Positions 3,298 through 27,673 of a DNA stretch of 64,000 bases are shown one piece after another. The translations under genes were made by a program, and so were the position numbers. Positions within the stretch are counted from its first letter, which is position 1, and each line of letters starts with the position of its first letter. Under the pieces are notes generated by a model, which worked only from the letters and a program-made list of their open reading frames with translations, did not search any database and was not told the DNA's origin. The stretch is from Escherichia phage L27: sequence record LC473039.1. One strand, given 5' to 3'.

Positions 3298-3561
3298 ATG
3301 GAACACGTCGAACTGACCACAATTTTACAAATTGCAACCGACAAAGAGGATGTAGCATTATTCCACCGCATCGAAAGTGATTTGTTCAATGGTGAAATCG
3401 TTAAAGAATCTTACGAAGTTGTCGGATTCAAAGATGGTAAATCATTTGGATTCTTTGACCTCGACAAAGGCAAAGCGGTTACAAAATATGATGTTTTATC
3501 TTGTGAGATTCTGACAAAATACAACGAAAAAAGGCTTGCAACATACGCCAATATGCAGTAA
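3298..3561 (+). CDS. hypothetical early protein (87 aa)
   Basis: ORF after cassette. Confidence 0.6.
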   Translation: MEHVELTTILQIATDKEDVALFHRIESDLFNGEIVKESYEVVGFKDGKSFGFFDLDKGKAVTKYDVLSCEILTKYNEKRLATYANMQ

Positions 3562-3627
3562 ATTACTAATCAACGGGAGGCGATAACCTCCCCACTAAAT
3601 AAAACCCTTAAACTAGGAGATTCAAAA
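3553..3627 (+). promoter_or_regulatory. type 2 cassette copy
   Basis: repeat. Confidence 0.5.
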
Positions 3628-3876
3628 ATGGCAACTATCCGCGCTACTGTTAACGAGTTCGGTTTTTCCTCTCTGGATGTTAAATTTGACATTGCATGCA
3701 CTGATAACGCCTTTGAAATGGTGAAAGGTCTTATCAGTCAGACCATCAAAGATTATAATCCTTCGGATGAGTTCTGGGAGGAAACAAAACAAGAAGTTCT
3801 CAAGGATGGTTATACTTATCACTATTGGGGAGAAAAAATCGTCTCCCTGTACTACAACAAACAAGATTATAACTAA
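3628..3876 (+). CDS. hypothetical early protein (82 aa)
   Basis: ORF after cassette. Confidence 0.6.
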   Translation: MATIRATVNEFGFSSLDVKFDIACTDNAFEMVKGLISQTIKDYNPSDEFWEETKQEVLKDGYTYHYWGEKIVSLYYNKQDYN

Positions 3877-3915
3877 TCGACGCAGCGGGGCTATTTAGCC
3901 CCAGATACCTTCAAA

Positions 3916-3940
3916 GCCCCTTTTCATAGGGGCTTTTTTA
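3916..3940 (+). terminator. rho-independent terminator
   Basis: stem agcccct/aggggct followed by TTTTTT; an additional hairpin ggggctatttagcccc lies just upstream. Confidence 0.7.
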
Positions 3941-3944
3941 CGTC

Positions 3945-5610
3945 TTATCGAATCTCTATACAATCCTTTCCCTTTCCTTTCCAGAATCTTCCCACTGATT
4001 CAATAGAATCTATCTCATACCTTAAAAAGTAATAACTCTATAGCTTACTCTATAGCCCCTTATCAAATCAACTTAAATATAAGCCCATAACCCGAAAGGG
4101 AAGGGCAACCATTTAATTGGTATTGTTACCAATCCCTAAACGCTCTATAAAGCTCTATAACAGCCTTATCAACCTAACTTAAGGGATTGCATTAACTCAC
4201 CCTTAAAAGCTCTTTACAGGGCTTTATAGAGGCTTAAAAGAATCTTATAAGGGTGTAAGCTTTACCATATCGTTAGTTCCTTGTGAATATCTATAAATGG
4301 CTATGAGATAGGACTCTATCGAATCCTCTTGTTAGTGTCTTAAAAGTATGTTATAGGGACTTAAAAGTTACTTCAAAGTTACGTGAAAGAGGCTATAAAG
4401 TTACGTAAATGCTAGCCCCCTTAACATTTTCTTAACAATTTCTTAACAATCCCTACATAGTTATACTTGTTAGCCCCTTGTTAAATCTCTGTTAAGACCA
4501 TGTAAAAGCCTTGTAAGAACCTTTGACATAGCCTTAAAAGCTCCTGTAAAGCCCTATAAAGAGCTATCCATACAGTTGAGGGGTAAATACTAGGGAGAGA
4601 CTAAAAAGAACCTATAAAGAGCCTATAGAGAGCTTTTAAAAGGTATGTTTAAGGAATCACTAAGAAAGGGAAGGGAACGATAAGAAAAGAGTAGTGACCA
4701 TGTTAACAGCTTGTTAAAAAGATTAAACACTTGTTAGGAACTTGTTAATTATCTTAACAAAATAACCCTTAAAAATTAACTTCTTAGACCTTGTTAGATA
4801 TCTGTTAAGCATCTGTAAAGACTATTCAGCAACTGTTAAGAAACTGTTACACCCCTGTTAGTTCTGTTAAGAATCTGTTAAGACCTTTGAAGAGTTGTTA
4901 AAAAGGTGTTAGAACTGTTAAGAGATTGTTAATGATATTTTAAGATTTTGCAAAGTACTTGTAAGGGAGCTGTTAAGGGCTACCAAGCAGATATACATCC
5001 TAATCAGATATTTTTCAGTTCCTTCAAAGACCCTAAAAAATGACTTGATAGTCCTATTTTATAAAAATTTTAAAATTCTGAATAATTACCTATACAGTCT
5101 TTCTAAAATACAGGTAGAAACAGGCTTATAAGATACCTTGTTAGTGCCGTGTTAGACCTTGTGAGATAAGGTCTGTAAAGATATTCCTGTTAAGTTTGTT
5201 AAAACAGTCTATATAGAGGCTTAGTATTTCCTAGTGAACACCTATAGAGGGTATCATAGCTGACATAATGGGTTACTGTTAAGTAACACAGATAACCTAG
5301 AGATTAAGAGGTGTATAGGAGCTTCTAAGAGGGTATAGAGAGATGGTTAAGGTGATTGTATAGGTTGTTAAGAAGGCTTGTTAGAAGAATGTTTAGAAGG
5401 CTTATTAAAGGGCTAGTTAGAAGGGTTATACAGGGGGCTATTAAGACCACTAGATAATTACTAAGATACTATATAGTACTATATAACTGTATATATATAG
5501 AGAGTAAGATTAAGAAGGTTGTTAAGAAGGATAGATATTTTATTCACATATGATGGTGACCCAGAGGTTGGGACAACCGATAAAATTTTATAAAAAATAT
5601 AAATTTCGTA
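3945..5610. repeat. ORF-free AT-rich region dense in short degenerate words ((c/t)tgtta(a/g), ctataaag, gttagaagg)
   Basis: no ORF of 60 aa or more in any frame over about 1.7 kb; lies between convergent transcription units. Confidence 0.5.
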
Positions 5611-5620
5611 AATTTTACTC

Positions 5621-5646
5621 AATAAAAAGCCCCCAATTAAGGAGGC
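5621..5646 (-). terminator. rho-independent terminator (minus strand)
   Basis: minus-strand hairpin gcctcc/gggggc followed by TTTTTATT. Confidence 0.6.
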
Positions 5647-5658
5647 TCTTAAGATATT

Positions 5659-6207
5659 TTAAATCAGGTTTTCTAAAACTGTTTTTAGTGATGACTTGGT
5701 TGTCTGATAAAAATGAGTAAACCTATTGTTGTTATCGAATATCTGCATCATAACAGCATCTCCCTTGATTGGGTACACTCGGATATCATAGTGAAACCCA
5801 TTAAAGACAGCAGAACCATTACAGAACACACTGAAATCATCCACTGAGATATACTCTTCATGCCCTGTGATTTTTATACAGACACCTTTACTCGGTCTCT
5901 TAGGGTTGGTATCTTCCATCACAGACATGCTCTGTCCACCAAGAGATACCATCGTGACCACTTTACGGTTCTTCTGTTTAAAGTACATTTTAACTTTCTG
6001 TAAAGTGTCTTCATAGAACGGATAAGACCTCTCTACAAAGATTCCTTCTAATGGCTCTTTACCATTTTCAACTTCTCTGTTATGTCGTACTGCAAAGATA
6101 ATTTGTTCGAACCAGTCAAGATTTTCTTCGGAGAGTGCTTCTCGAATATCACTCCAGTCAAGGACTAGGTAGTTACCTTCAACTTCTTTTAAGTTATCTT
6201 TTTCCAT
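5659..6207 (-). CDS. hypothetical protein (about 183 aa)
   Basis: ORF; ATG at 6207 chosen because the track start at 6252 is a TTG that overlaps the upstream gene. Confidence 0.5.
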   Translation of the reverse strand: MEKDNLKEVEGNYLVLDWSDIREALSEENLDWFEQIIFAVRHNREVENGKEPLEGIFVERSYPFYEDTLQKVKMYFKQKNRKVVTMVSLGGQSMSVMEDTNPKRPSKGVCIKITGHEEYISVDDFSVFCNGSAVFNGFHYDIRVYPIKGDAVMMQIFDNNNRFTHFYQTTKSSLKTVLENLI

Positions 6208-9852: not shown

Positions 9853-9879
9853 AAAATAAAAAAGGCTCCCGAAGGAGCC
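9853..9879 (-). terminator. rho-independent terminator (minus strand)
   Basis: perfect hairpin ggctcc-cgaa-ggagcc with T-run on minus strand, downstream of the lysozyme gene. Confidence 0.8.
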
Positions 9880-9889
9880 TATGAAGATA

Positions 9890-10354
9890 TTACTTTGGAT
9901 ATACGCTGTCAAGATAAATGTCAGCTTCCATTCTACGTCTGTTTTTCAGGCCGTTTGAAGTGACCTTCTTACCTTTGACTGTAACCTTGTTCCACCACTG
10001 CATAGCTTCTGCACAACCGACCTTATTACCATCGTTGTGGCGCTTGATAAATGTAGAGTCCTGCATAGCTGTGATGCCAATGTTGTATGTTTCACTTACC
10101 AGTGCATCAAACTCATTCTGAGAAGTTGGAACCTTGACGGCTTTGTTCACTGCTGCAACGAACTTCTCAACATCTGCGAGAAGATACTGTTCAGCTTGTT
10201 CAGCGGTAATCTTCATACCCATCTTAACAGGCTTCCCACCAATACGAATTGTCCCATACCCAATTGTGGGGATTCCAGCAGAATCTTCGTAAGCCTCTAG
10301 CTTAAGACCTTCAAAGAACTTAATAGCTTCTAAACCTTTTCTTGAGAGTTGCAT
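9890..10354 (-). CDS. endolysin, lysozyme (GH24, P22 gp19/T4 e-like)
   Basis: 154 aa; N-terminal motif EGLKLEAYEDSAGIPTIGYG matches the lysozyme catalytic Glu/Asp/Thr region as recalled. Confidence 0.85.
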   Translation of the reverse strand: MQLSRKGLEAIKFFEGLKLEAYEDSAGIPTIGYGTIRIGGKPVKMGMKITAEQAEQYLLADVEKFVAAVNKAVKVPTSQNEFDALVSETYNIGITAMQDSTFIKRHNDGNKVGCAEAMQWWNKVTVKGKKVTSNGLKNRRRMEADIYLDSVYPK

Positions 10355-10986
10355 TAGCCCTCCCCTGCTGGGTTAACTGTAACTGTTGCTGCATTAGATG
10401 TTACAGAACCACCTACACCAGTAACTACACAAGTGTAGCTTCCTGCATCTGCTTGTAGAGCACCAGACTTGCTATAGGTAGCATTTGTAGCTGAAGGGAT
10501 GTCAGAGCCATCTTTCTTCCACTGATAACCTGTTGCACCTGTTGCAATAACGCTTAGGGTAAGTGTGCCACCTTCATTTACTGTTTGATTGGTTGGTTGC
10601 TGGGTGATTACTGGTGGCTTGATAGCATCCTTCAACTTAGCATTCAACATTGAGAATGGTTTAACTCTTGCCAGCCATTCACAATAAACTGTATCAACGT
10701 CTTTACCATTGATAATTGCATATTGTAAGTCCATGAAGAAGTCAGACGTTCTCATTTGAGCACCAACGCTGTAAAGCAACTCATCACTAAATGGAACTTT
10801 GTAGTCTGGTTTGTAGTCAAACTTCTTAACTTCTGCAATATCAGCTTCAGGCCAATACGAACTATAGGTAAGTGGTAAAATAGCCTCTTGATATGTTCTA
10901 AAATCATATCTCTTACCAGCCTTTACATTCGCAACGAAGCCCTTCACAAACTCTTTGAAGTCTGGGTAAGTCTTTGCTTTAATCAT
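10354..10986 (-). CDS. hypothetical protein with C-terminal Ig-like domain (210 aa)
   Basis: C-terminal about 90 aa has Ig-like pattern (TLTLSV...YQWKKDG...SYTCVVTG...TVTV); N-terminal domain is paralogous to 10983-11354. Confidence 0.6.
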   Translation of the reverse strand: MIKAKTYPDFKEFVKGFVANVKAGKRYDFRTYQEAILPLTYSSYWPEADIAEVKKFDYKPDYKVPFSDELLYSVGAQMRTSDFFMDLQYAIINGKDVDTVYCEWLARVKPFSMLNAKLKDAIKPPVITQQPTNQTVNEGGTLTLSVIATGATGYQWKKDGSDIPSATNATYSKSGALQADAGSYTCVVTGVGGSVTSNAATVTVNPAGEG

Positions 10987-11354
10987 TTCTTTTTAGCCTC
11001 TAAATGTGCGTTTAGTCTAAAATAACCTTTGTGATGCGGAGATACATCACCAACAACAATACCTTTAACCTTATAACCTTTACCAATTACATACTGGATA
11101 TCCATAAGGAATCTTCCAAGACCAACAATATGGAACATTGGGTATAATAGATTCTCAGAATCTGGAATATTGATTTCAGGTTTGTAGGTACACTGTTCGC
11201 TTGTTGGTGTAATATCTTCTTCAGGCCATTTGCTGAGTCTCCATGTCAAAGGTGTTGGGATAACATCATTAAGGTTGTACCTTTCACCATTTTTCACGGA
11301 ATTGATATAGGATTGTAGGAAGCAATAAAAGTCTTTTGCACTCTTAGCTTTCAT
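10983..11354 (-). CDS. hypothetical protein (123 aa), paralog of N-domain of preceding gene
   Basis: shared motifs (DF..F...VK.G.RY, WPE.DI, YKP, LLY, F.MD.QY.I..G). Confidence 0.55.
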   Translation of the reverse strand: MKAKSAKDFYCFLQSYINSVKNGERYNLNDVIPTPLTWRLSKWPEEDITPTSEQCTYKPEINIPDSENLLYPMFHIVGLGRFLMDIQYVIGKGYKVKGIVVGDVSPHHKGYFRLNAHLEAKKK

Positions 11355-11401
11355 TAAATATCCTTATAAATAGTTAAAGGGGCTGATGCCCCTATCCACA
11401 C

Positions 11402-12611: not shown

Positions 12612-12983
12612 ATGAAAAACAGAACAAACAAAGGCCAGTTTAAAAAAGGCCAGTCTGGAAACCCATCTGGAAGACCAAAAGGCTCTCGTAACAAAAGCTC
12701 ACTCGTAAAAGCTCAACTGACCATTGATAATTCTGCTGAGTTCGCTGCAAAGCTGTTTGAGGCGATTGTTACAAGGGACGCTGCTAAGCTTGCAGAGTTC
12801 GGTTTGACGACTGACGATGTAAACCTGAAGTCGATGATGGAAGCTGGTAAAACTATCATGACCCACTCAGCAGGTGAGATGAAAGCGATTGCAGCAGACA
12901 CTAAGAAGACCCCTGATAATGGTGGTCAACAACAGACAGATAACAAACCAACGTTCTCTGCTGTAGCGACTCTCAAAAAATAA
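12612..12983 (+). CDS. hypothetical basic protein (123 aa) with N-terminal KKGQSGNPSGRPKG motif
   Basis: ORF with RBS; first gene of operon with the vWA protein. Confidence 0.6.
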   Translation: MKNRTNKGQFKKGQSGNPSGRPKGSRNKSSLVKAQLTIDNSAEFAAKLFEAIVTRDAAKLAEFGLTTDDVNLKSMMEAGKTIMTHSAGEMKAIAADTKKTPDNGGQQQTDNKPTFSAVATLKK

Positions 12984-13063: not shown

Positions 13064-14479
13064 ATGAGCGAGTTATTTAAACATGCGCACCTTCATGCAG
13101 GTCGAACTGAAAATGGTGCTGTAAACCATACTTCATCAATGTCTGCTCTGGTAGACTTCTACAAAGCCGCTGGCTCAAGCCGTAGCAATGTAGAAATCTT
13201 ACCAGACCTGTTCTACAAAGCTTTGCGTGAGGATGTTGATGTTGCAGTTCGTATTTTACTGCATATGCGAGATGTACGAGAAGGTATGGGTGAGCGTAAA
13301 GCTTTCCGAACTGTTTTACTTCAAGCGATTGAAGATAAGGTTTTAGAACCTACACAGGTTCTTCGCATTATGGATAAGATTGCAGAACTTGGTCGTTTTG
13401 ATGACTTCAAAATCTTCGTAGGTACTCGTTTCGAGACAGATGCCTTCAAACATTTAGAAGCAGCATTACTAGACCCTGCAACAGCAGGTTTAGCAGCTAA
13501 GTGGTTGCCACGAGTAAAACCACGCCACAAACAGTTTGTAAAACGTTTCTGTAAGTTTGCAAACTTAAGCGAGAAGGAGTATCGCACACTGCTATCTGCA
13601 CTGTCTGATACGGTTGAGCAAAAAATCTCTGCTAATGAGTTTGGTAAGATTGACTACAGCAAGATTCCTTCACTCGCTGCTGCACGTTACCAAAAGCTCT
13701 TTAACCGTAAAGATGGAGAGCGTTACAAAGCTTACATCGAATCATTATCAAAGGGTGAGGTTAAGATTAATGCTGGTGCTGTTTACCCATATGATGTGAT
13801 TAAATCTATTAAGTATGGTAATGCAGATGTTGCTAATGAGCAGTGGAAAGCACTTCCAAACTGGATGGCAGAAGGTGAAAACATCTTGTGTATGACTGAT
13901 GTTTCAAGCTCAATGTCTTGGGTGAATCTTGGTTCAATCACTGCCCTTGATATTGGTGTATCACTTGCCTTGTATGTAGCAGAACGCAATACAGGTTGCT
14001 TTAAAGATGAGTTAATGGTCTATTCAACAAACCCTCATTTCATTGAACTGAGTGGTGATTTACGAAACCGTCATCGTCAGGTAATGCGTCATGTTGAATA
14101 TGGTTCAACTAACTTACAAGCAGCTTTTGACCGTATTCTTGAGGTAGGTAAGAGAAACAACTTGACTCAGAAAGATATGCCAAGTAAGCTTATTATCTTC
14201 TCTGATATGGAGTTTAATCAGGTTGATGGTGCAAATGGTCGTACAAACTTTGAAGCAATTCAGAGTAAGTACAAAAAAGCTGGATACGAAATGCCACAAC
14301 TAGTATTCTGGTACTTAGCAAACCGTAATGGTACTTGCGAAGTATCTGTTAAGGATAATGGTGTAGCAATGGTATCAGGGTTCTCTCCAGCCACTTTAAA
14401 AGCTCTGCTTGGTGGTGAGAAGTTTGACCCAATCAGTGTAATGCTCAAAGCGGTAATGATTGACCGTTATATCTGGTAA
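13064..14479 (+). CDS. vWA-domain protein with MIDAS-like motif; candidate Ro60/TROVE-like (or DUF2828-like) RNA-binding protein (471 aa)
   Basis: DxSxS motif (DVSSSMS) about residue 280 followed by vWA-like pattern (IIFSDMEFN, VSGFSP); overall architecture resembles Ro60/Rsr as recalled, not searched. Confidence 0.5.
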   Translation: MSELFKHAHLHAGRTENGAVNHTSSMSALVDFYKAAGSSRSNVEILPDLFYKALREDVDVAVRILLHMRDVREGMGERKAFRTVLLQAIEDKVLEPTQVLRIMDKIAELGRFDDFKIFVGTRFETDAFKHLEAALLDPATAGLAAKWLPRVKPRHKQFVKRFCKFANLSEKEYRTLLSALSDTVEQKISANEFGKIDYSKIPSLAAARYQKLFNRKDGERYKAYIESLSKGEVKINAGAVYPYDVIKSIKYGNADVANEQWKALPNWMAEGENILCMTDVSSSMSWVNLGSITALDIGVSLALYVAERNTGCFKDELMVYSTNPHFIELSGDLRNRHRQVMRHVEYGSTNLQAAFDRILEVGKRNNLTQKDMPSKLIIFSDMEFNQVDGANGRTNFEAIQSKYKKAGYEMPQLVFWYLANRNGTCEVSVKDNGVAMVSGFSPATLKALLGGEKFDPISVMLKAVMIDRYIW

Positions 14480-14644: not shown

Positions 14645-14721
14645 CTCTGTTTAGCTCAGCTTGGTAGAGCGTTCCGTTTGGGGCGGTAAGGCCGGAGGTT
14701 CAAGTCCTCCAACAGAGACCA
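14645..14721 (+). tRNA. tRNA-Pro (anticodon TGG)
   Basis: hand-folded cloverleaf; 7-bp acceptor ctctgtt/aacagag, T-loop ttcaagt, CCA encoded. Confidence 0.7.
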
Positions 14722-14728
14722 AATTAAT

Positions 14729-14806
14729 GTTCCAGTAGACAAAATGGTATAGTCACCACTCTTTCAAAGTGGATATTTGAGGGTTCAAATCCCTTCTGGA
14801 ACGCCA
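14729..14806 (+). tRNA. tRNA-Glu (anticodon TTC)
   Basis: acceptor gttccag/ctggaac, anticodon loop ctttcaa, CCA encoded. Confidence 0.7.
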
Positions 14807-14810
14807 GTTT

Positions 14811-14889
14811 TGACAGAAGACCAATTACAGCAAACTTAATCTTATTCATCTGAAGGTAAATCGGACAAAGAAGAGACTTGGTCTGGTCA
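14811..14889 (+). ncRNA. structured RNA-like element A (Y-RNA-like family)
   Basis: terminal helix tgac/gtca + AGAA/UG internal loop + GACCAA/TTGGTC helix; conserved 'tacagcaa' box. Confidence 0.5.
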
Positions 14890-14898
14890 TTAAGAATT

Positions 14899-14975
14899 GC
14901 GGGTATAGAGAAAGGGCGTCTCACATGTCTCATTAGCATGGTATCGGCAGGTTCGACTCCTGCACCCGCCTCCAA
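14899..14975 (+). tRNA. tRNA-Met-like (anticodon CAT), 1:72 unpaired
   Basis: anticodon loop ctcatta, T-arm gcagg/ttcgact/cctgc, CCA encoded; first acceptor pair mismatched. Confidence 0.6.
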
Positions 14976-14978
14976 ATT

Positions 14979-15049
14979 TACAGAAGACCGTTTACAGCAA
15001 AATTGAATGAAATTTTTAGCGGAAAAATTGAAAGATACGGTCTGGTAAT
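14979..15049 (+). ncRNA. structured RNA-like element B (Y-RNA-like family)
   Basis: terminal helix ttac/gtaa + AGAA/UG loop + GACCGT/ACGGTC helix. Confidence 0.5.
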
Positions 15050-15058
15050 ACTAAACAT

Positions 15059-15132
15059 GGTTAGGAAGCACATAAGGTATGTGCGGTCGCCTGTTAAGCG
15101 AATGGCACAGGGTTCGAATCCCTGACTAACCG
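15059..15132 (+). tRNA. tRNA-Asn (anticodon GTT)
   Basis: T-arm caggg/ttcgaat/ccctg, anticodon loop ctgttaa; CCA not encoded. Confidence 0.65.
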
Positions 15133-15144
15133 CAAAATTTAAAT

Positions 15145-15232
15145 GTGTCGTTATCCCGTAGATGGTAGCGGTGGGGACTGTAAATCCCTTGTCATTGAGA
15201 CTCGGTAGGTTCGACTCCTACACGGCACACCA
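15145..15232 (+). tRNA. tRNA-Tyr (anticodon GTA), long variable arm
   Basis: anticodon stem-loop gggga/ctgtaaa/tccct, T-arm gtagg/ttcgact/cctac, acceptor gtgtcgt/acggcac. Confidence 0.65.
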
Positions 15233-15254
15233 ACACTTAGCGAGATACTTAGTT

Positions 15255-15683
15255 ATGAGAGATGAAGTATACAAATCACAACTTGGTATGAGTTTGGGAA
15301 CTGCACAAAACAGACTAGTAAAAGATTTGCTATTCGATTTTATATGTAAGACAAATCAAAATAGATGTTTTCAGTGCGGAAAAGAAATGACTAGGGATGA
15401 TTTCTCTATCGAGCATAAGATTCCGTGGAGACATAGTGAGAATGCAAAAGAGCTTTTCTTTTCACTAGATAATATTTCTTATAGTCATCTTAAATGTAAC
15501 ATGAAAGCAGCAAGACCAGCACAGATAAGTGAAAGAAAACATAAAACAATTAAACACGGAACTGCGTATAGTTATTTTAAAGGCTGTAGATGCGATGAGT
15601 GTAGGTTGGCTAAGAATGCTGAGAGTAGAAGAAACTATAGTCCAGAAAGACGTAGGAAGAAGTATCTAAGAAATGGCACATGA
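15255..15683 (+). CDS. HNH homing endonuclease (142 aa)
   Basis: CFQCG...SIEHKIPW...N...H..CN HNH motif; basic C-terminus; embedded in tRNA cluster. Confidence 0.75.
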   Translation: MRDEVYKSQLGMSLGTAQNRLVKDLLFDFICKTNQNRCFQCGKEMTRDDFSIEHKIPWRHSENAKELFFSLDNISYSHLKCNMKAARPAQISERKHKTIKHGTAYSYFKGCRCDECRLAKNAESRRNYSPERRRKKYLRNGT

Positions 15684-15687
15684 ATTT

Positions 15688-15763
15688 GGGGTATTAGTTT
15701 AGACGGGTAAAATACGGGATTGTCTCTCCTGAGCCGCGAGTTCGATTCTCGCATACCTCGCCA
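15688..15763 (+). tRNA. tRNA-Asp (anticodon GTC)
   Basis: acceptor ggggtat/atacctc, anticodon loop ttgtctc, CCA encoded. Confidence 0.75.
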
Positions 15764-15821
15764 ATTTTGAGAGGGCTATTTAGCCCCTCCCTTAAAGGGT
15801 TCTTACGAGTATCTTTTAAAG

Positions 15822-15903
15822 GAGCAGAAGACCAAATACAGCAAGAACGTATGAAAATTTCAAGCCAATTTAATTTTGAAAAATTTAAAACTTGGTCTGG
15901 CTC
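15822..15903 (+). ncRNA. structured RNA-like element C (Y-RNA-like family)
   Basis: terminal helix gagc/gctc + AGAA/UG loop + GACCAA/TTGGTC helix. Confidence 0.5.
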
Positions 15904-15910
15904 AACAAAT

Positions 15911-16047
15911 TTACAGAAGACCGTTTACAGCAAAACTTAAACAATCTATTTCTCGGTAAAGAAAAGGCGAAGGTTCGATTCCTTCACTCGGCAGATGTCG
16001 AGTTGGTGTAATGGTAGCACTTAAGATGATAAACAACGGTCTGGTAA
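15911..16047 (+). ncRNA. structured RNA-like element D with circularly permuted tRNA-like module (candidate YrlA-type Y RNA)
   Basis: same terminal helices as A-C; interior has T-arm gaagg/ttcgatt/ccttc, then acceptor-3' actcggc, 4-nt linker, acceptor-5' gtcgagt (7-bp complement) and D-arm gtgt/aatggta/gcac. Confidence 0.5.
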
Positions 16048-16189
16048 TTATCTTTGTAGATAAGTTATTAAGCTTACCTGTGAGTATGCGACCACAAAGG
16101 GTGAAAGGGTAAATTCTAGATTTAAACCCAACAAGGCACATCGCTACAGACCTTAAGCAAGTCTGGGTAGCTTATCTACAAAGATAATT
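16046..16189 (+). ncRNA. structured element F bounded by a 19-bp perfect inverted repeat
   Basis: aattatctttgtagataag (16046-16064) is the exact reverse complement of 16171-16189; about 106-nt interior with internal hairpins. Confidence 0.45.
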
Positions 16190-16193
16190 TAAT

Positions 16194-16269
16194 GGAAGTG
16201 TAGCAGAATGGTGATGCGGTAGACTTTTAATCTGACAGGCGATGGGTTCGAATCCCTCCACTTCTACCA
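16194..16269 (+). tRNA. tRNA-Lys (anticodon TTT), atypical T-stem
   Basis: acceptor ggaagtg/cacttct, anticodon loop cttttaa; T-stem has A.C and U.U mismatches. Confidence 0.55.
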
Positions 16270-16273
16270 AAAT

Positions 16274-16350
16274 GGTTCAGTCGCAGATAAGGTAATGCAA
16301 GGGTCTCATAAGCCCTATGAATGTGGGTTCGATTCCCATCTGAACCTCCA
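16274..16350 (+). tRNA. tRNA-Met or Ile2 (anticodon CAT)
   Basis: acceptor ggttcag/ctgaacc perfect, anticodon loop ctcataa, CCA encoded. Confidence 0.7.
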
Positions 16351-16367
16351 ATTTATAGGTGATACTT

Positions 16368-16853
16368 ATGATTTGTGCCAACAAAGATTGCAGAAATGAA
16401 GCCGTTAAAGGTGGAAAATTTTGCTCACGCTCTTGTTCTGCAAAAGTGAACAACAAGAAACACCCAAAGAGAAGTCAGGAAGGCTCTTGCCATTCATGCG
16501 GAAAGGTAACGCCAAAAGCGAGAAAATACTGTGACGAATGTATTGCAGGTGGAGTCATGAAAAAACATAAGACCCATCATGAAAAAAGCAAAGCCAAATC
16601 ACTGCACGTTAAAAAGTCTCGTGACAGACTGAAGAAGGCTTTAGTTGATTACAAGGGTGGTTGTTGTTCAATTTGTGGTTACAATAGGTGCATAAAGGCT
16701 CTAGAGTTTCACCACTTAGACCCTAAGACAAAAGACTTCACAGTAAGTAAAAAACACTACTCACTGGCTACAATGCAGTCTGAAGTTGATAAGTGTGTCT
16801 TGCTTTGTGCAAATTGCCACAGAGAAGTACACGAAGGGGTAACAATGCTGTGA
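16368..16853 (+). CDS. HNH homing endonuclease (161 aa), Cys-rich N-terminus
   Basis: CSICGYN...LEFHHLDP...CANCHREVH HNH motif; stop codon lies inside the first bases of tRNA-Ile. Confidence 0.75.
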   Translation: MICANKDCRNEAVKGGKFCSRSCSAKVNNKKHPKRSQEGSCHSCGKVTPKARKYCDECIAGGVMKKHKTHHEKSKAKSLHVKKSRDRLKKALVDYKGGCCSICGYNRCIKALEFHHLDPKTKDFTVSKKHYSLATMQSEVDKCVLLCANCHREVHEGVTML

Positions 16854-16922
16854 AAGCACATATGGATGTGCATTCGGCTGATAACCGAAAGGCAGAAGGT
16901 TCAAATCCTTCTCACAGTACCA
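16847..16922 (+). tRNA. tRNA-Ile (anticodon GAT)
   Basis: clean cloverleaf: D-stem gcac/gtgc, anticodon stem ttcgg/ccgaa, T-stem gaagg/ccttc, CCA encoded. Confidence 0.8.
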
Positions 16923-16937
16923 ATTTCAATAAAGTTG

Positions 16938-16966
16938 TTGACATTGAGATGTGACTACTTTATAGT
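16938..16966 (+). promoter_or_regulatory. sigma70-like promoter (TTGACA-17-TATAGT) inside tRNA cluster
   Basis: consensus -35 and good -10 with 17-nt spacer. Confidence 0.65.
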
Positions 16967-17170
16967 AACCTTAGTTTTCGTTGCGTAGCGTCTATTTTGC
17001 AAATTTAAAATAAATGCAAACGACAATGTTTTTCTGGCAGTAGCTTGATAGGCTAAACACCAGTGAGGTCTTCCAATCCCTCATCAAAGAATTTGGCGTA
17101 CTCGCCCACGGTATGATTAATAAGGTGGGCATCTTTAAGGGCTTTCTAAGAGAGTCTTTAAAGATAATTA

Positions 17171-17252
17171 CGGGGCGTATCTCAGCGGTCTTCTAAACCG
17201 CCGTTAACCGAGTAAGTGGAGTATGCGGGTTCGAGTCCTGCCGCCTCGACCA
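17171..17252 (+). tRNA. aberrant tRNA-like gene (possible anticodon TCT), D-arm missing or unrecognisable
   Basis: good T-arm and 7-bp acceptor (cggggcg/cgcctcg) with CCA; stem-loop gcggt/cttctaa/accgc; only about 7 nt where the D-arm should be. Confidence 0.4.
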
Positions 17253-17395
17253 ATTTAGTTAGCAGATTACTTAGACGACCTAAGCGGGTCTTCCTGTAGG
17301 GAGGTGGTCTGTATCTCATGTTTTCCAGAACATGTAAATAATCTGAGAAGGGGCTTTACAGTGTTGAGATAATACGGTAAGCTTCGAATTATAGT

Positions 17396-17478
17396 ATGGG
17401 ACGATGTTAAGACTCTAAGGCATGAGCAACGGCTTCCAACACCGTTTCAAAGGGGTTCAACTCCTCCGTCCCATGCCA
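17396..17478 (+). tRNA. tRNA-Trp-like (anticodon CCA) with about 8-nt insertion before D-stem
   Basis: perfect 7-bp acceptor atgggac/gtcccat, anticodon loop ttccaac, T-loop ttcaact, CCA encoded; expanded D region. Confidence 0.45.
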
Positions 17479-17491
17479 AAGTCTTATTAGG

Positions 17492-17581
17492 GGTAGGTAG
17501 CGGCTAATGGTAGCCAAACAGTCTTGAAAACTGTTGCCACTGTAGAGATACGGTGAGGGTTCGACTCCTTTACTTACCGCC
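17492..17581 (+). tRNA. tRNA-Ser (anticodon TGA), long variable arm
   Basis: anticodon stem acagt/actgt perfect, loop cttgaaa, 20-nt variable arm. Confidence 0.75.
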
Positions 17582-17735
17582 TAATAAGATTTTACACCGT
17601 CCATGCTTGCTCGCATTTTCGGTTTATCCCTCGTGTATTGTCGTACACTGATAAAGCACCTAGTAGGTGTCACGGAGAAGAGATAATATCAAGCTCTCCA
17701 AAGGTTCTAGTCACCGGATTAAACAAGACTATGCA

Positions 17736-17758
17736 AAGACCAAATTAGGTCTTTTTAG
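17736..17758 (+). terminator. terminator-like hairpin with T-run inside tRNA cluster
   Basis: aagacc-aaatta-ggtctt followed by TTTTT. Confidence 0.45.
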
Positions 17759-17835
17759 AGGGCTTCTAAGGTTATTACAGCTTGTTGTGGAACCTTGTTG
17801 CTTAGGTTCTTAGAAGTTCTCTAAAAAGATTTAAT

Positions 17836-17913
17836 GGGAGATTGACGGTAATTGGTAAACCTATCTCGCTTAGAACGAGATGTTTGAGGGTTCGAATCCC
17901 TTGTCTCCTACCA
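17836..17913 (+). tRNA. tRNA with Leu-type anticodon TAG but short variable arm
   Basis: anticodon stem tctcg/cgaga, loop cttagaa, T-arm gaggg/ttcgaat/ccctt, CCA encoded. Confidence 0.55.
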
Positions 17914-17920
17914 AATTAAT

Positions 17921-17996
17921 GCAGGTGTAGCAAAATGGTTATGCGGCTGACTCTTAATCAGTAAGACGATGGGTTCAATTCCCTCCACCTGTACCA
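17921..17996 (+). tRNA. tRNA-Lys (anticodon CTT), atypical T-stem
   Basis: anticodon stem gctga/tcagt, loop ctcttaa; same unusual T-stem as the TTT Lys tRNA. Confidence 0.55.
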
Positions 17997-18002
17997 GACA
18001 TT

Positions 18003-18078
18003 GGGGATGTAGTTTACATGGTTAAAACATAAGTTTTGCAAACTTAAGTACAGGGTTCAATTCCCTGCTTCTCCACCA
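18003..18078 (+). tRNA. tRNA-Ala (anticodon TGC)
   Basis: G3.U70 wobble pair present; D-stem gttt/aaac, anticodon stem taagt/actta perfect. Confidence 0.8.
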
Positions 18079-18084
18079 ATTAGT

Positions 18085-18159
18085 GCATCCATAGTTTAAA
18101 CGGGAAAATTGCAGTCTTCCAAACTGAGGTTGAGGGTTCGATTCCCTCTGGATGCTCCA
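18085..18159 (+). tRNA. tRNA-Gly (anticodon TCC)
   Basis: perfect acceptor gcatcca/tggatgc, T-arm gaggg/ttcgatt/ccctc. Confidence 0.75.
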
Positions 18160-18165
18160 AATAAA

Positions 18166-18242
18166 GCTGCTTTCGTATAATTGGCTATTACACATCCCTT
18201 GTAAGGATGGAAATGCAGGTTCGAGTCCTGTGAGCAGCACCA
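18166..18242 (+). tRNA. tRNA-Thr (anticodon TGT)
   Basis: anticodon stem catcc/ggatg perfect, loop cttgtaa, CCA encoded. Confidence 0.75.
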
Positions 18243-18245
18243 ATT

Positions 18246-18333
18246 CAGAGGTCAAGTGAAAGACCGCTGGTGTCAACTGAAGACCGTAACAAATTCCACG
18301 GAGTTGAGTTAGCGGCACAACTTCAGACCTCTT
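18246..18333 (+). ncRNA. structured RNA-like element E (truncated family member with nested helices)
   Basis: outer helix agaggtc/gacctct; inner mini-element 18275-18307 has caac/gttg + ccgt/acgg helices and 'gaagaccgt' box. Confidence 0.4.
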
Positions 18334-18337
18334 TCAC

Positions 18338-18412
18338 ACTCGCTTAGTTTATATGGTAAAACATCACCCTTACAAGATGAAGAAAAAGGTTCAAGTCCTT
18401 TAGTGAGTACCA
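18338..18412 (+). tRNA. tRNA-Val (anticodon TAC)
   Basis: D-stem gttt/aaac, anticodon loop cttacaa, T-arm aaagg/ttcaagt/ccttt. Confidence 0.7.
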
Positions 18413-18413
18413 T

Positions 18414-18491
18414 GTTCCAGTATCCCAATTGGCAGAGGATGCAAGCTCAAACCTTGTATTAGTGACGGTTCGAATCCGTCTTGGAACACCA
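18414..18491 (+). tRNA. tRNA with Leu-type anticodon CAA but short variable arm
   Basis: anticodon stem gcaag/cttgt, loop ctcaaac, T-arm gacgg/ttcgaat/ccgtc perfect. Confidence 0.55.
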
Positions 18492-18510
18492 ATTTTAAGA
18501 GGCTATTTAG

Positions 18511-19068
18511 ATGAGATATTTGAAGTATGCTTCATGGATTTTCCTAGCTTTACTAGAGCCATTTGCAGCAACCCTAGCAGTCATCTTAGCACCTTTCGTA
18601 GTCCCATTCTACAGTGAGAAGAAAGGGCATCTACCTTTTGGATTCAGATGGATGGAGACCTATGACAACCCGATTGATGGTGATGAAGGCCACGTTAAAA
18701 GATGGGCTAAGATTAGAAAGATTGGTAAGCTGGGTGTCTACATGCAGAGAGTTGGGTGGCTCTGGAGAAACAAAGCTTATAACTTCTCTTACCATGTATT
18801 AGGAAGAGATGTAAAAGATGTTACTAAGTGGAAAGGTAATATCAACGTAAGTTCTAACCCTGAAGATAATCAAACAGGTTATCTCCTAATGTGGAACAGA
18901 AATGCTTGGGGTTTATTTGCTTTTATCCCATCAATTAAAGTCTTTGGTAAACAGTTTTACTGGAGAATTTATATTGGATGGAAACTAAAAAGTGTTGTCC
19001 CAGAAGAAAGAGCATTCTCAAGGGAAAGAGTTATGTTGGCATTCTTTATTCATCCACTGAGAAAGTAA
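18511..19068 (+). CDS. hypothetical membrane protein (185 aa) inside tRNA cluster
   Basis: N-terminal hydrophobic segment (WIFLALLEPFAATLAVILAPFVVPF); ORF between tRNA genes. Confidence 0.55.
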   Translation: MRYLKYASWIFLALLEPFAATLAVILAPFVVPFYSEKKGHLPFGFRWMETYDNPIDGDEGHVKRWAKIRKIGKLGVYMQRVGWLWRNKAYNFSYHVLGRDVKDVTKWKGNINVSSNPEDNQTGYLLMWNRNAWGLFAFIPSIKVFGKQFYWRIYIGWKLKSVVPEERAFSRERVMLAFFIHPLRK

Positions 19069-19076
19069 AGATTTAA

Positions 19077-19152
19077 AGGGGATTAGTTTACAAGGTTAAA
19101 ACCTCGGTCTTTGAAATCGAAGAAGTTGGTTCAATTCCAACATCCCCCGCCA
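19077..19152 (+). tRNA. tRNA-Gln (anticodon TTG), A1.C72 mismatch
   Basis: anticodon loop ctttgaa, T-arm gttgg/ttcaatt/ccaac perfect. Confidence 0.65.
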
Positions 19153-19154
19153 AT

Positions 19155-19233
19155 GCTCCATTACTCCAATTGGCAGAGAGGCCAGACTTAAAATCTGTGT
19201 TATGTATCGGTTCGAATCCGATATGGAGTACCA
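19155..19233 (+). tRNA. tRNA with Leu-type anticodon TAA but short variable arm
   Basis: anticodon loop cttaaaa, T-arm atcgg/ttcgaat/ccgat perfect. Confidence 0.55.
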
Positions 19234-19238
19234 AATTT

Positions 19239-19314
19239 AGCGGTATAGCATAACTGGCAATGCAGCAGTCTCTGAAGCTGTCCTATTAAGGTTCAAATCC
19301 TTATGCCGCTGCCA
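19239..19314 (+). tRNA. tRNA-Gln (anticodon CTG)
   Basis: anticodon stem gcagt/gctgt (two G.U), loop ctctgaa, T-arm taagg/ttcaaat/cctta. Confidence 0.7.
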
Positions 19315-19345
19315 CTTCTAAGGGTTCTTACGAGAGTCCTTAAAT

Positions 19346-19421
19346 GTGGCCTTATCATAAATGGTAATGACCCATGCTGTGAACATGGTCTATACGGGTT
19401 CAAATCCCGTAGGTCACCCCA
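19346..19421 (+). tRNA. tRNA-His (anticodon GTG)
   Basis: D-stem tcat/atga, anticodon stem ccatg/catgg perfect, T-arm acggg/ttcaaat/cccgt perfect. Confidence 0.8.
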
Positions 19422-19426
19422 ATTTA

Positions 19427-19502
19427 TAGTCCAAGTAGCTTATATGGTAAAGCGCGTGTCTGAAAAACATGAGAAGAGGGTTCAAATCCCACTGGACTAC
19501 CA
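19427..19502 (+). tRNA. tRNA-Phe (anticodon GAA), boundaries approximate
   Basis: D-stem gctt/aagc, anticodon loop ctgaaaa; acceptor tagtcca/tggacta. Confidence 0.6.
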
Positions 19503-19518
19503 ATTTCAAAGGTGCTTA

Positions 19519-20253: not shown

Positions 20254-20254
20254 T

Positions 20255-20347: not shown

Positions 20348-20351
20348 ATTT

Positions 20352-26569: not shown

Positions 26570-27673
26570 ATGTTGACTAATTCTGAAAAAAGCAGATTTT
26601 TCCTTGCTGACCTGACTGGTGAAGTCCAGTCTATCCCAAATACTTATGGGTATATTTCCAACTTAGGTCTGTTCCGTTCAGCACCAATCACCCAAACTAC
26701 TTTCCTTATGGACTTGACTGATTGGGATGTTAGCTTGCTTGATGCGGTAGACCGTGATAGCCGTAAAGCAGAGACTAGCGCACCTGAGCGTGTTCGTCAA
26801 ATCAGCTTCCCAATGATGTACTTCAAAGAAGTTGAAAGCATCACTCCTGATGAAATTCAGGGTGTACGTCAGCCAGGCACTGCAAACGAACTGACTACTG
26901 AAGCAGTAGTACGTGCTAAGAAGCTGATGAAGATTCGTACCAAGTTCGATATTACTCGTGAGTTCCTGTTTATGCAAGCTCTGAAGGGTAAAGTTGTTGA
27001 TGCTCGTGGTACTCTGTACGCTGACCTGTACAAGCAGTTCGACGTTGAGAAGAAGACTGTTTACTTCGACCTTGACAACCCTAACGCTGACATCGACGCT
27101 TCTATTGAAGAACTGCGTATGCACATGGAAGACGAAGCTAAGACTGGCACTGTAATCAACGGTGAAGAAATTCACGTAGTTGTTGACCGTGTGTTCTTCA
27201 GCAAACTGGTTAAGCATCCTAAGATTCGTGACGCTTATCTTGCACAGCAGACTCCGCTGGCTTGGCAACAGATTACTGGTTCTCTGAGAACTGGTGGTAC
27301 TGACGGTGTTCAGGCTCACATGAACACTTTCTACTACGGTGGTGTTAAGTTTGTCCAGTACAACGGTAAGTTCAAAGACAAGCGTGGTAAGGTTCACACT
27401 CTGGTGAGCATTGACAGCGTAGCAGACACTGTTGGTGTTGGTCATGCTTTCCCTAACGTTTCTATGCTGGGTGAAGCAAACAACATCTTCGAAGTTGCAT
27501 ATGGTCCATGTCCTAAGATGGGTTATGCAAATACACTTGGTCAGGAACTGTACGTATTCGAATACGAAAAAGACCGTGACGAAGGTATTGACTTTGAAGC
27601 TCACTCTTACATGCTGCCATACTGTACTCGTCCTCAGTTGCTGGTAGATGTTCGTGCTGACGCCAAAGACTAA
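26570..27673 (+). CDS. major capsid protein
   Basis: 367-aa ORF with strong RBS and high-expression codon usage, downstream of protease. Confidence 0.7.
   Translation: MLTNSEKSRFFLADLTGEVQSIPNTYGYISNLGLFRSAPITQTTFLMDLTDWDVSLLDAVDRDSRKAETSAPERVRQISFPMMYFKEVESITPDEIQGVRQPGTANELTTEAVVRAKKLMKIRTKFDITREFLFMQALKGKVVDARGTLYADLYKQFDVEKKTVYFDLDNPNADIDASIEELRMHMEDEAKTGTVINGEEIHVVVDRVFFSKLVKHPKIRDAYLAQQTPLAWQQITGSLRTGGTDGVQAHMNTFYYGGVKFVQYNGKFKDKRGKVHTLVSIDSVADTVGVGHAFPNVSMLGEANNIFEVAYGPCPKMGYANTLGQELYVFEYEKDRDEGIDFEAHSYMLPYCTRPQLLVDVRADAKD

Follow-up and report, generated by a model that had tools for sequence, protein, structure and literature searches.

A predicted Hex-Dec capsid decoration protein and a conserved CapBD-only paralog encoded beside the endolysin gene of a Felix O1-like phage

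Analysis of a 64,000-nucleotide stretch of DNA from Escherichia phage L27 (record LC473039.1; hereafter the window) drew our attention to two neighbouring genes upstream of the endolysin gene, here called ORF-A and ORF-B. We consider it likely that ORF-B encodes Hex-Dec, the decoration protein of capsid hexamers, and that ORF-A encodes a conserved paralog which is made up of the capsid-binding domain (CapBD) alone and has not been found in virions. The window is part of the genome of a Felix O1-like myophage of the genus Felixounavirus, because it has 94-96% nucleotide identity to Felixounavirus genomes and carries a 24-gene tRNA array. Taken together, the result is an ordinary one, and its single modest lead is ORF-A. 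The positions of the features discussed below are collected in Table 1.

Table 1. Features of the ORF-A/ORF-B locus and the gene of its capsid partner (positions in the window)
Feature	Position	Strand	Description
ORF-A	10983..11354	minus	123 aa; CapBD only; phrog_4463
ORF-B	10354..10986	minus	210 aa; predicted Hex-Dec / Hoc-like hexamer-centre capsid decoration protein, single-Ig form
ORF-B CapBD, residues 1-118	10633..10986	minus	from alignment to solved chains; contains R79 and R107
ORF-B Ig-like domain (single I-set/Ig_3), residues 124-206	10369..10617	minus	Pfam, AF2, Foldseek
Endolysin, GH24 / T4-lysozyme type	9890..10354	minus	PF00959, E=9e-41; last gene of the A-B-lysin unit
ATGA overlap, ORF-A stop / ORF-B start	10983..10986	minus	from sequence
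GC-rich hairpin, GGGGC-loop-GCCCC, then T-rich	11379..11392	minus	immediately 5' of the ribosome-binding site of ORF-A
Intrinsic-terminator-like hairpin and T-run	9863..9880	minus	directly 3' of the endolysin gene; closes the three-gene unit
Major capsid protein (MCP) gene	26570..27667	plus	tblastn with Felix O1 MCP, 98% identity

The region between positions 10354 and 11354 holds exactly two ORFs, both on the minus strand, and no rival ORF longer than 45 aa lies opposite them on the plus strand. The overlap of ORF-A with ORF-B has the form typical of translationally coupled genes, and comparison of the junctions in six relatives located it in Felixounavirus and Mooglevirus. Downstream, the start codon of the endolysin gene overlaps the stop codon of ORF-B (TAATG). 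The position of ORF-B beside the endolysin gene is a case of conserved synteny, the order A-B-lysin being common to Felix O1, Meda, Sf14, SUSP1, EC6, Moogle and L009. In the seven phages compared, the hairpin upstream of ORF-A keeps its stem and varies in its loop, and the same sequence is included in the terminator table of the Felix O1 paper. At the other end of the unit, a terminator is annotated at the same place, after the endolysin gene, in phage Meda. About 16 kb separate the MCP gene from ORF-B.

According to the original prediction, two neighbouring genes have an N-terminal domain of about 120 aa in common, and only the copy proximal to the lysozyme gene carries an Ig-like domain. Both points were borne out. 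Pairwise BLASTP gave a significant alignment of ORF-A with ORF-B (36% identity over 101 aa, E=3e-16), and each of the two proteins matches the PHROG family of the other at ~1e-16. The family alignment shows 35 positions, as far as L118, at which the residue is invariant or almost invariant (at least 90%) in both families. Given the BLASTP E value, the crossed PHROG matches and these 35 common positions, the likeness is far beyond chance; it covers an N-terminal domain of about 118 aa, and the two genes are real paralogs. The same alignment contains 35 further positions that are fixed in a family-specific manner.

In ORF-B three Pfam families scored above their cut-offs over the C-terminal region, namely Ig_3 (44.3 bits, cut-off 30), I-set (34.5, cut-off 23.7) and Ig_2 (32.1, cut-off 27). 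This domain is modelled by AF2 with a pLDDT of about 95-96, and Foldseek matches it to crystal structures of Ig C2/I-set domains (for example 3bfo_A, TM 0.90, rmsd 1.6 Å). ORF-A has no Pfam match and the protein stops at residue 123. The number of Ig copies in Hex-Dec relatives ranges from 1 to 4 (PMC12609058), and nucleotide matches in relatives run about 250, 500 or 750 bp longer than our 1701-base query. Set against the three Ig repeats of P0096, the single Ig domain of the window combines sequence from the first, middle and last repeats in a mosaic, which suggests that the one-copy form arose by collapse through recombination between repeats.

The identity of ORF-B follows from its match to two solved proteins. 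With phmmer, ORF-B hits Hex-Dec of phage Bas63 (9NCF chain S) at E=1.5e-224 and gp20 of phage Sf14 (9C2D chain S) at E=4.6e-157, residues 1-205 aligning on residues 1-206 of the solved chains. The CapBD is ~97% identical to that of 9NCF chain S (4 differences in 123 residues, counted by eye) and 89% identical to that of 9C2D. The family match is phrog_3995 (E=1.8e-124) and the equivalents of ORF-B are Felix O1 gp36, Sf14 gp20 and Bas63 Hex-Dec. The CapBD has been resolved by cryo-EM in both Bas63 and Sf14, where the protein binds as a monomer in the middle of each of the 60 hexamers that adjoin pentamers in the T=9 head (PMC12609058, PMC11821841). In the Sf14 structure R79 and R107 of gp20 make salt bridges with Asp221 of the MCP (PMC11821841). 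Both arginines are present in ORF-B, and residue 221 of the MCP encoded in the window is Asp (codon 27230-27232), so that all residues for these contacts appear to be in place here, the contacts themselves being known from the Sf14 structure only. Within the Hex-Dec family R79 is invariant and R107 nearly invariant, and the ORF-B CapBD evolves with a dN/dS of 0.02-0.04. The Felix O1 orthologue, gp36, has been detected in CsCl-purified virions with 44% coverage. Taken by its sequence, ORF-B is thus the Hex-Dec / Hoc-like capsid decoration protein that has already been solved and published. Its location at hexamer centres, established in the relatives, is expected to hold in this phage because the CapBD is ~97% identical to that of Bas63. 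The CapBD of ORF-B was modelled by AF2 with a pLDDT of 36-73, and the Sf14 authors noted a mismatch between the AlphaFold CapBD and their density. The domain has been described as having two pseudo-symmetric lobes (PMC12609058).

It had also been suggested that the two genes may encode duplicated virion factors exposed at the surface, or factors that bind the cell envelope. The first suggestion holds for ORF-B as a capsid decoration protein and is not supported for ORF-A, which is absent from proteomes and capsid models and has lost Arg79. The second does not agree with the cryo-EM of the orthologues, by which ORF-B is a decoration protein of the capsid.

ORF-A falls in its PHROG family with E=9e-80, and its equivalents are Felix O1 ORF37 (NP_944851.1), Sf14 gp21 and SUSP1 agp126. 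It also matches the solved Hex-Dec chains, over the CapBD only (E=1.7e-12 for 9ncf_S and E=1e-11 for 9c2d_S). The best AF2 model of ORF-A has a moderate pLDDT of 69.8 (47-55 for the four others), and a Foldseek search with it returned 9ncf_S and 9c2d_S as the only matches at E<=1e-3, with TM 0.59-0.63. In the aligned set all A-type proteins end near residue 122-124; full-length cluster representatives have 120-124 aa and the shorter ones have internal gaps or truncations. The equivalent of Arg79 is Gly in 20/20 aligned A-type sequences and in the divergent P0098. The equivalent of Arg107 is Gln or His in the ORF-A family and Arg in P0098 alone, because of which the loss appears to be universal among A-type proteins for the Arg79 equivalent only.

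Matches covering at least 80% of ORF-A were found in 232 of the 252 matching phage records, which span three genera. Felixounavirus, Mooglevirus, Suspvirus and a more divergent metagenomic phage all keep ORF-A next to the Hex-Dec and endolysin genes; in the 87-kb contig of the last of these, which retains the order 195aa-A-B-lysin, A is 45% and the CapBD of B 58% identical to the copies in the window. The ORF-A/Hex-Dec pair therefore seems to have been neighbours at least since the split from this lineage. A word-indexed homologue search gave Ounavirinae sequences only, and a full profile search with A and the CapBD of B gave 12 representative clusters among 1.84 billion; consequently neither search supplied an informative characterised relative of ORF-A. 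We interpret ORF-A as an old tandem duplicate of the CapBD that has no display domain.

In the explanation that we favour, the CapBD of ORF-B (~118 aa, largely helical) would insert as a monomer into the centre of MCP hexamers, its sites, as in the solved relatives, being restricted to the 60 hexamers of the T=9 shell that adjoin pentamers. Arg79 and Arg107 would hold it there by salt bridges to MCP Asp221, and the single C-terminal Ig domain would point outward, as the shortest form of an array that varies from 1 to 4 copies between relatives. By analogy with T4 Hoc, the Ig domain probably serves for weak adhesion to surfaces or mucus, or for particle aggregation. ORF-A has lost the Arg79 anchor and has not been detected in mature virions. 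As a tentative guess, ORF-A may be a non-structural or sub-stoichiometric helper that acts during head assembly, either at the hexamer-centre site or on Hex-Dec; it might transiently occupy or protect hexamer centres, or modulate the loading of Hex-Dec. It is possible, if doubtful, that ORF-A stands for a class of anchor-only paralogs of decoration proteins, that is late-expressed CapBDs with a remodelled contact surface and a job of their own at hexamer centres. Candidate jobs would be transient or low-copy occupation of hexamers in the procapsid or at facet centres, gating of the place and time of Hex-Dec loading, or diversion of a host factor that would recognise the CapBD, with ORF-A as the decoy. 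Also conceivable are a cryptic structural role on the 20 hexamers at three-fold positions and a regulatory one outside the virion.

A structural role of this kind is the core of an alternative that we regard as unlikely, in which both paralogs are virion decoration proteins, ORF-B on the 60 pentamer-adjacent hexamers and ORF-A capping the 20 facet-centre hexamers, which lie on true three-fold axes and to which Hex-Dec would be unable to bind. Of the readings considered, this one comes closest in concrete terms to the original idea of a duplicated virion factor. Such a division of labour would fit with the CapBD fold and the 35 core residues kept by ORF-A, and with its late transcription together with ORF-B, Felix O1 ORF36 and ORF37 being both maximally transcribed at 60 min by RT-PCR. 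Moreover, icosahedral averaging would reduce the signal of a monomer that sits on such an axis. The data on virions point the other way. The 17 proteins identified in Felix O1 virions (coverage cut-off of at least 25%; ORF-A is 14 kDa) do not include ORF37, even though smaller proteins of 9.7-13.7 kDa were detected, and, going by what the text of the VpaE1 paper states, ORF-A is not among the three VpaE1 virion proteins added to the Felix O1 set. Likewise ORF-A is neither listed nor modelled in the Sf14 or Bas63 capsids in the available portions of the two structure papers, whose text does not mention it, and no density was reported on the Bas63 hexamers left free by Hex-Dec (PMC11821841, PMC12609058). 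Other sources were silent on the matter: 'gp21' in the Sf14 supplement refers to SPP1 gp21 only, gp21 is not mentioned in the Sf14 tRNA paper, the wV8 proteome paper, which deals with tail-fibre bands only, contains nothing on ORF-A, and the HIDEN-SEQ and transposon-essentiality preprints include no Felix O1-like phage. The absence of ORF-A from proteomes is negative evidence and not a proof of absence. A further argument against a decoration role is that ORF-A is decayed in SP116 and that about 19 records have no match to it.

Also improbable in our judgement is a role of ORF-A as a chaperone or other dedicated partner of Hex-Dec, with which it would form a heterodimer through the related CapBD folds, keeping Hex-Dec soluble or unbound until heads mature and having no action of its own on the capsid. 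Neighbours with an ATGA overlap are typical of translationally coupled products made in a fixed ratio, the pair has been retained side by side since before the lineages split, and the two-lobed build of the CapBD would suit such a pairing. However, SP116, with its ORF-A remnant, keeps an intact Hex-Dec gene. This alternative overlaps with the helper part of our preferred explanation, from which present evidence does not separate it. The remnant in SP116 and the records that have no match also bear on whether the gene is needed, as does a CRISPRi-ART screen in which SUSP1 agp125 and agp126 were both called 'Not Fit'. Isolates in which ORF-A is not intact include SP116, REP5/6/8/11 and fKMPT1. 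By these three observations ORF-A would be dispensable in the laboratory, with the reservation that false negatives are likely in the screen because the endolysin was also called 'Not Fit'.

There is very little probability that ORF-A is a decaying leftover of the duplication, or that it supplies only the 5' portion of an A-B fusion protein, produced by a -1 frameshift at the AAAAAG that directly precedes its stop codon. Decay could be read from the SP116 remnant and from the faster evolution of ORF-A compared with the ORF-B CapBD (dN/dS 0.13-0.19, at dS of about 0.6-1.2, versus 0.02-0.04). These low ratios nevertheless tell against decay, as does the ORF itself, which is intact at 122-124 aa across three genera and in the lineage that is only 45% identical, and in which 35 family-specific residues are fixed. 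We thus discarded the view of ORF-A as a pseudogene. With its purifying selection, these fixed residues, its late transcription and its coupling-type overlap with ORF-B, we take it to be a functional gene. A fusion was suggested by the -1 frame of ORF-B and by the junction GCT AAA AAG AAA TGA with its slippery-like run of Lys codons. We rejected it as well, since Sf14 and Moogle lack the AAAAAG run (GCTAAGAAATGA) and SUSP1 has ORF-B in the +1 frame, so that a frameshift fusion would not be conserved.

Equally hard to maintain is a role of the two genes in a lysis cassette, as holin, spanin or endolysin regulator. The idea draws on their adjacency upstream of the endolysin gene, the TAATG overlap with it and the single hairpin-bounded unit that the genes form. 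It was abandoned on several grounds. Both proteins are hydrophilic (GRAVY -0.45 and -0.33) and not hydrophobic overall, which makes the holin or spanin type unlikely, and the orthologues of ORF-B are capsid proteins in the solved relatives. In addition, the Felix O1 paper reports no holin adjacent to the lysin, and the timing differs, ORF35 (the lysin) belonging to the 25-min class of the Felix O1 RT-PCR and ORF36 and ORF37 to the 60-min class. Finally, the notion that the pair are tail proteins, as given in most GenBank records and in PHROGs ('tail protein', 'HK97 major tail subunit'; ORF-B matches phrog_158, phrog_853 and phrog_3575, 'major tail protein'), has next to no chance of being right and was dismissed, as the matches to phrog_158, 853, 3575 and 9239 are confined to residues 96-210, on and around the Ig domain and not the bulk of the CapBD, and cryo-EM puts the orthologues on capsid hexamers; the 'tail protein' label of the ORF-B family is incorrect, and the Bas63 authors likewise state that this annotation of Hex-Dec is wrong (PMC12609058).

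With ORF-B as Hex-Dec and ORF-A as its CapBD-only paralog, little is new about ORF-B: a solved decoration protein has been re-identified and the 'tail protein' label of many Felix O1-like records is again found to be wrong. The CapBD is a compact, high-occupancy and modular capsid anchor that occurs naturally with an I-set domain, a Big_2 domain or no display domain, and it might serve as a handle for display on Felix O1-type phages in therapy, in the way that T4 Hoc and T5 pb10 have been used. ORF-A, which is conserved and transcribed late, belongs to a phage group that is employed in the typing and biocontrol of Salmonella and E. coli. How decoration proteins tell quasi-equivalent hexamers apart is a question raised in the Sf14 and Bas63 papers (PMC11821841, PMC12609058); should ORF-A control why only 60 of the 80 hexamers carry decoration, it would be relevant to this discrimination.

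The closest known system is Hex-Dec of Bas63 (JohannRWettstein; 9NCF chain S), the orthologue of ORF-B, which has the same Ig family and the same position by the endolysin gene. It differs in having four Ig domains instead of one, and by its published mechanism it plugs the centres of the facet-edge hexamers as a monomer (PMC12609058). Sf14 gp20 (Mooglevirus; 9C2D/9C3A chain S), in whose CapBD R79 and R107 are kept, has three Ig domains where ORF-B has one. Sf14 gp21, the orthologue of ORF-A, is encoded immediately upstream of gp20 with the same ATGA overlap; it is unmentioned in the main text of the structure paper, and ORF-A thus has no characterised counterpart there. T4 Hoc, like ORF-B, is a non-essential monomer at hexamer centres with a small capsid-binding domain and outward Ig-like domains. 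The order of the parts is reversed, the Ig domains being N-terminal and the binding domain C-terminal in Hoc, and the CapBD first in ORF-B. For T4 Hoc, no paralog with the binding domain alone is known to us. Two 'Hoc-like head decoration' families, phrog_2973 and phrog_4069, match ORF-B in its Ig region, over residues 126-210 only, and no Hoc chain is among the 60 best PDB sequence matches of ORF-B. The Bas63 authors found the Hex-Dec CapBD to be larger than the Hoc domain and topologically distinct, with minimal sequence conservation (PMC12609058). ORF-B, by these comparisons, would work like Hoc and is not a member of the T4 Hoc family. T5 pb10 (5LXK, 8ZVI) resembles ORF-B in its N-terminal capsid-binding domain, its one C-terminal Ig-like domain and its location at hexamer centres. 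The sequence likeness (E=1.8e-13 and 4.5e-13 for the pb10 chains) does not extend beyond the Ig domain (residues 131-207), with no detectable match between the capsid-binding domains. The same anchor of about 120 aa recurs in the distant metagenomic proteins P0100-P0104, found with the profile of A and the CapBD of B at E values from 1.7e-10 to 1.4e-4. P0100 and P0101 carry Big_2, P0102 carries an I-set domain and P0104 has a Lys/Ser-rich tail with no Pfam domain, and because these distant members bear other display modules the CapBD anchor can be regarded as modular.

The two neighbouring genes that the original prediction described as paralogs with a common N-terminal domain, only the lysozyme-proximal copy carrying an Ig-like domain, occupy exactly the interval it proposed; we call them ORF-A (without Ig) and ORF-B (with Ig). 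Pairwise alignment of the two proteins was significant (BLASTP, 36% identity over 101 aa, E=3e-16) and each matched the PHROG family of the other (~1e-16). When 20 A-type and 9 B-type sequences were aligned, 35 positions, extending up to L118, were invariant or nearly so (at least 90%) in both families. Pfam matches to Ig_3, I-set and Ig_2, each above its gathering threshold, were found at residues 124-204 of ORF-B and in that copy alone. AlphaFold2 (AF2) modelled this domain with a pLDDT of ~95-96, and a Foldseek comparison of the model gave 693 PDB matches (E<=0.001). Each of the 50 listed includes an Ig-type domain, the best being 3bfo_A (TM 0.90, rmsd 1.6 A). The prediction was thus correct in all particulars.

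Features of the ORF-A/ORF-B locus and other features of the window
Feature	Coordinates	Strand	Description
ORF-A	11354..10983	minus	123 aa
ORF-B	10986..10354	minus	210 aa
ORF-B capsid-binding domain (CapBD)	10633-10986	minus	residues 1-118
ORF-B Ig-like domain	10369-10617	minus	
A/B junction	10983-11000	minus	GCT AAA AAG AAA TGA
Endolysin	10354..9890	minus	154 aa; PF00959, E=9e-41
GC-rich hairpin	11392-11379	minus	GGGGC-loop-GCCCC then T-rich; immediately 5' of ORF-A ribosome-binding site
Terminator-like hairpin and T-run	9880-9863	minus	3' of endolysin
DUF5681 homolog	12612-12983	plus	123 aa; homologs so annotated
DUF2828 homolog	13064-14479	plus	471 aa; homologs annotated DUF2828 or 'RNA-binding protein'
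tRNA array	14645-20427	plus	24 tRNA genes, including tRNA-Lys(ttt) and tRNA-Lys(ctt)
Major capsid protein (MCP)	26570-27667		98% identity with Felix O1 MCP

Start and stop codons share bases at both gene boundaries, as ATGA between ORF-A and ORF-B and as TAATG between ORF-B and the endolysin gene. The hairpin upstream of ORF-A keeps its stem while its loop varies among the seven phages compared, and the same sequence is found in the terminator table of the Felix O1 paper. No promoter-like site was found between this hairpin and the ORF-A ATG, and the strand opposite the two genes contains nothing beyond ORFs of at most 45 aa. At the A/B junction ORF-B lies in the -1 frame beside a run resembling a Lys slippery site. 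An A-B frameshift fusion was rejected because Sf14 and Moogle lack the AAAAAG run and in SUSP1 the two reading frames are related in another way; the junction is therefore probably just translational coupling. Elsewhere, the window carries a tRNA array typical of Felix O1-like phages and, beside it, a divergently transcribed pair of genes, the shorter of which has a SUSP1 homolog (agp130) scored 'Fit' in a CRISPRi-ART screen.

ORF-B belongs to the published Hex-Dec family of hexamer-centre decoration proteins and shows every feature of it that could be tested here. The 1.7-kb region shares 94-96% identity with many genomes of the genus Felixounavirus, among them those of pSJ21, Meda and Felix O1. 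The protein matched chain S of 9NCF ("Immunoglobulin-like domain protein", 460 aa, E=1.5e-224) and chain S of 9C2D/9C3A ("putative tail protein", 372 aa, E=4.6e-157), which are cryo-EM structures of the Bas63 (PMC12609058) and Sf14 (PMC11821841) capsids. In these phages the Hoc-like decoration protein, named Hex-Dec in Bas63 and gp20 in Sf14, binds hexamer centres through its CapBD in monomeric form, and does so only on the pentamer-adjacent hexamers of the T=9 shell; its Ig-like domains project outward and are unresolved in the maps (PMC12609058, PMC11821841). MCP Asp221 of Sf14 forms salt bridges with gp20 Arg79 and Arg107 (PMC11821841); both arginines are found in ORF-B and position 221 of the window MCP is Asp. 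The Felix O1 orthologue, gp36 (ORF36), was detected in CsCl-purified virions with 44% coverage, and the location of its gene outside the morphogenesis module was already pointed out in 2010. According to the Bas63 authors the "tail protein" label is a mis-annotation (PMC12609058); the tail-family PHROG matches of ORF-B sit on or around its Ig domain (residues 96-210), which is consistent with this. AF2 with a shallow alignment performed poorly on the ORF-B CapBD (pLDDT 36-73); cryo-EM shows it to be well ordered, and the Sf14 authors reported that an AlphaFold CapBD disagreed with their density (PMC11821841). By analogy with these relatives, the ORF-B CapBD would plug hexamer centres and display the Ig-like domain, which may promote weak adhesion or aggregation, as has been suggested for T4 Hoc (PMC11821841, PMC12609058).

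Felixounaviruses carry one to four Ig-like domains (PMC12609058), and the matches that our DNA search gave in related genomes span ~250, 500 or 750 bp more than the 1701-base query. The one-Ig form of the window is also present in Meda, EC6, SP116 and many metagenomic sequences. Relative to a three-Ig homolog (P0096) the window Ig is a mosaic, in which residues 125-152 are closest to repeat 1 (24/28), residues 153-198 to repeat 2 (42/46) and residues 199-210 to the last repeat (10/12). These small numbers suggest that the Ig array may have collapsed through recombination between repeats. A profile of the A and B CapBDs retrieved only 12 clusters from 1.84 billion representative proteins, and in the distant members the anchor is joined to Big_2 (P0100, P0101), I-set (P0102) or a Lys/Ser-rich tail (P0104). 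This indicates that the CapBD is a rare, modular capsid anchor.

ORF-A is the only part of the locus without an existing explanation in the literature searched. Its family, phrog_4463, is annotated "unknown function", and by sequence it matched nothing in the PDB other than the CapBDs of 9NCF_S (E=1.7e-12) and 9C2D_S (1e-11). A moderate AF2 model (pLDDT 69.8, pTM 0.70) gave the same two chains as the only significant Foldseek matches (TM 0.59-0.63). ORF-A is a CapBD superfamily member without a characterised counterpart, and two features that define Hex-Dec proteins, the anchoring arginines and the Ig domain, are missing from it.

At least 80% of ORF-A is covered in 232 of the 252 matching phage records (74-99% identity; Felixounavirus, Mooglevirus and Suspvirus), and at every inspected locus it lies directly 5' of Hex-Dec. 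Orthologues include Felix O1 ORF37, Sf14 gp21, SUSP1 agp126, Moogle gp89, EC6 gp018 and VpaE1 ORF40c. Kolesnikvirus-type phages such as phiEa21-4 gave a single match, to a Hex-Dec-like gene. The 195aa-A-B-lysin order is kept in a metagenomic contig (ENA ERZ28599557 scaffold_93, 87 kb; 3368-5726) from a much more divergent, apparently unclassified Felix O1-like phage. Protein identity with the window across this block is 45-61% (A 45%, B CapBD 58%), and its A and B are 36% identical, about equal to the 38% of the window, indicating that the duplication predates the split of these lineages. A stretch of GU169904.1 (Staphylococcus phage SA1, 141752-143704) shares 94% identity with this Felix O1-like segment and probably reflects contamination or chimeric assembly.

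The dN/dS of ORF-A against EC6, Sf14, Moogle and SUSP1 was 0.13-0.19 (Nei-Gojobori), compared with 0.02-0.04 for the B CapBD and 0.04-0.11 for the endolysin. Another 35 positions are fixed differently between the A and B families. A-type proteins invariably have Gly in place of Arg79, and they have Gln or His in place of Arg107, apart from the divergent P0098, which has Arg there. At the sequence level, these rates, family-specific positions and replaced arginines point to a functional ORF-A gene with constraints of its own.

By RT-PCR in Felix O1, ORF36 and ORF37 fall in the 60-min peak class together with structural genes, and ORF35 (endolysin) and ORF38 in the 25-min class. The 17 virion proteins of Felix O1 do not include ORF37, even though detection extended to proteins of 9.7-13.7 kDa, and in VpaE1 the only virion proteins reported in addition to the Felix O1 set are gp54, gp58 and gp68. 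Sf14 gp21 is missing from the structural protein table and unmentioned in the text (PMC11821841), and the Bas63 text mentions no paralog and reports no density on undecorated hexamers (PMC12609058). In Salmonella phage SP116 (2305-2498 of its locus, corresponding to window 10986-11354) Hex-Dec is intact, but only a remnant of ORF-A persists, its start codon gone and ~180 nt deleted; ORF-A gave no match in ~19 Ounavirinae records. CRISPRi-ART scored SUSP1 agp126 (paralog) as "Not Fit" along with agp125 (Hex-Dec) and agp124 (lysin), which is weak evidence of dispensability for agp126 because the lysin scored likewise. Tail, lysis and pseudogene readings were rejected. We tentatively consider that ORF-A might be a non-structural or sub-stoichiometric helper in head assembly, acting either on Hex-Dec or at hexamer centres; such a helper role would fit its late expression, its coupling to ORF-B, a fold kept with an altered contact surface, its apparent absence from mature particles and its apparent dispensability. 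The main rival readings, in which ORF-A cryptically caps the 20 facet-centre hexamers or serves as a Hex-Dec chaperone, appear rather unlikely.

In all, the finding is an ordinary one, mostly explained already, with ORF-A as one modest uncharacterised lead. ORF-B resembles T4 Hoc and T5 pb10 in the way it works, but only the Ig module is common to it and either protein, and its domain order is the reverse of that of Hoc.
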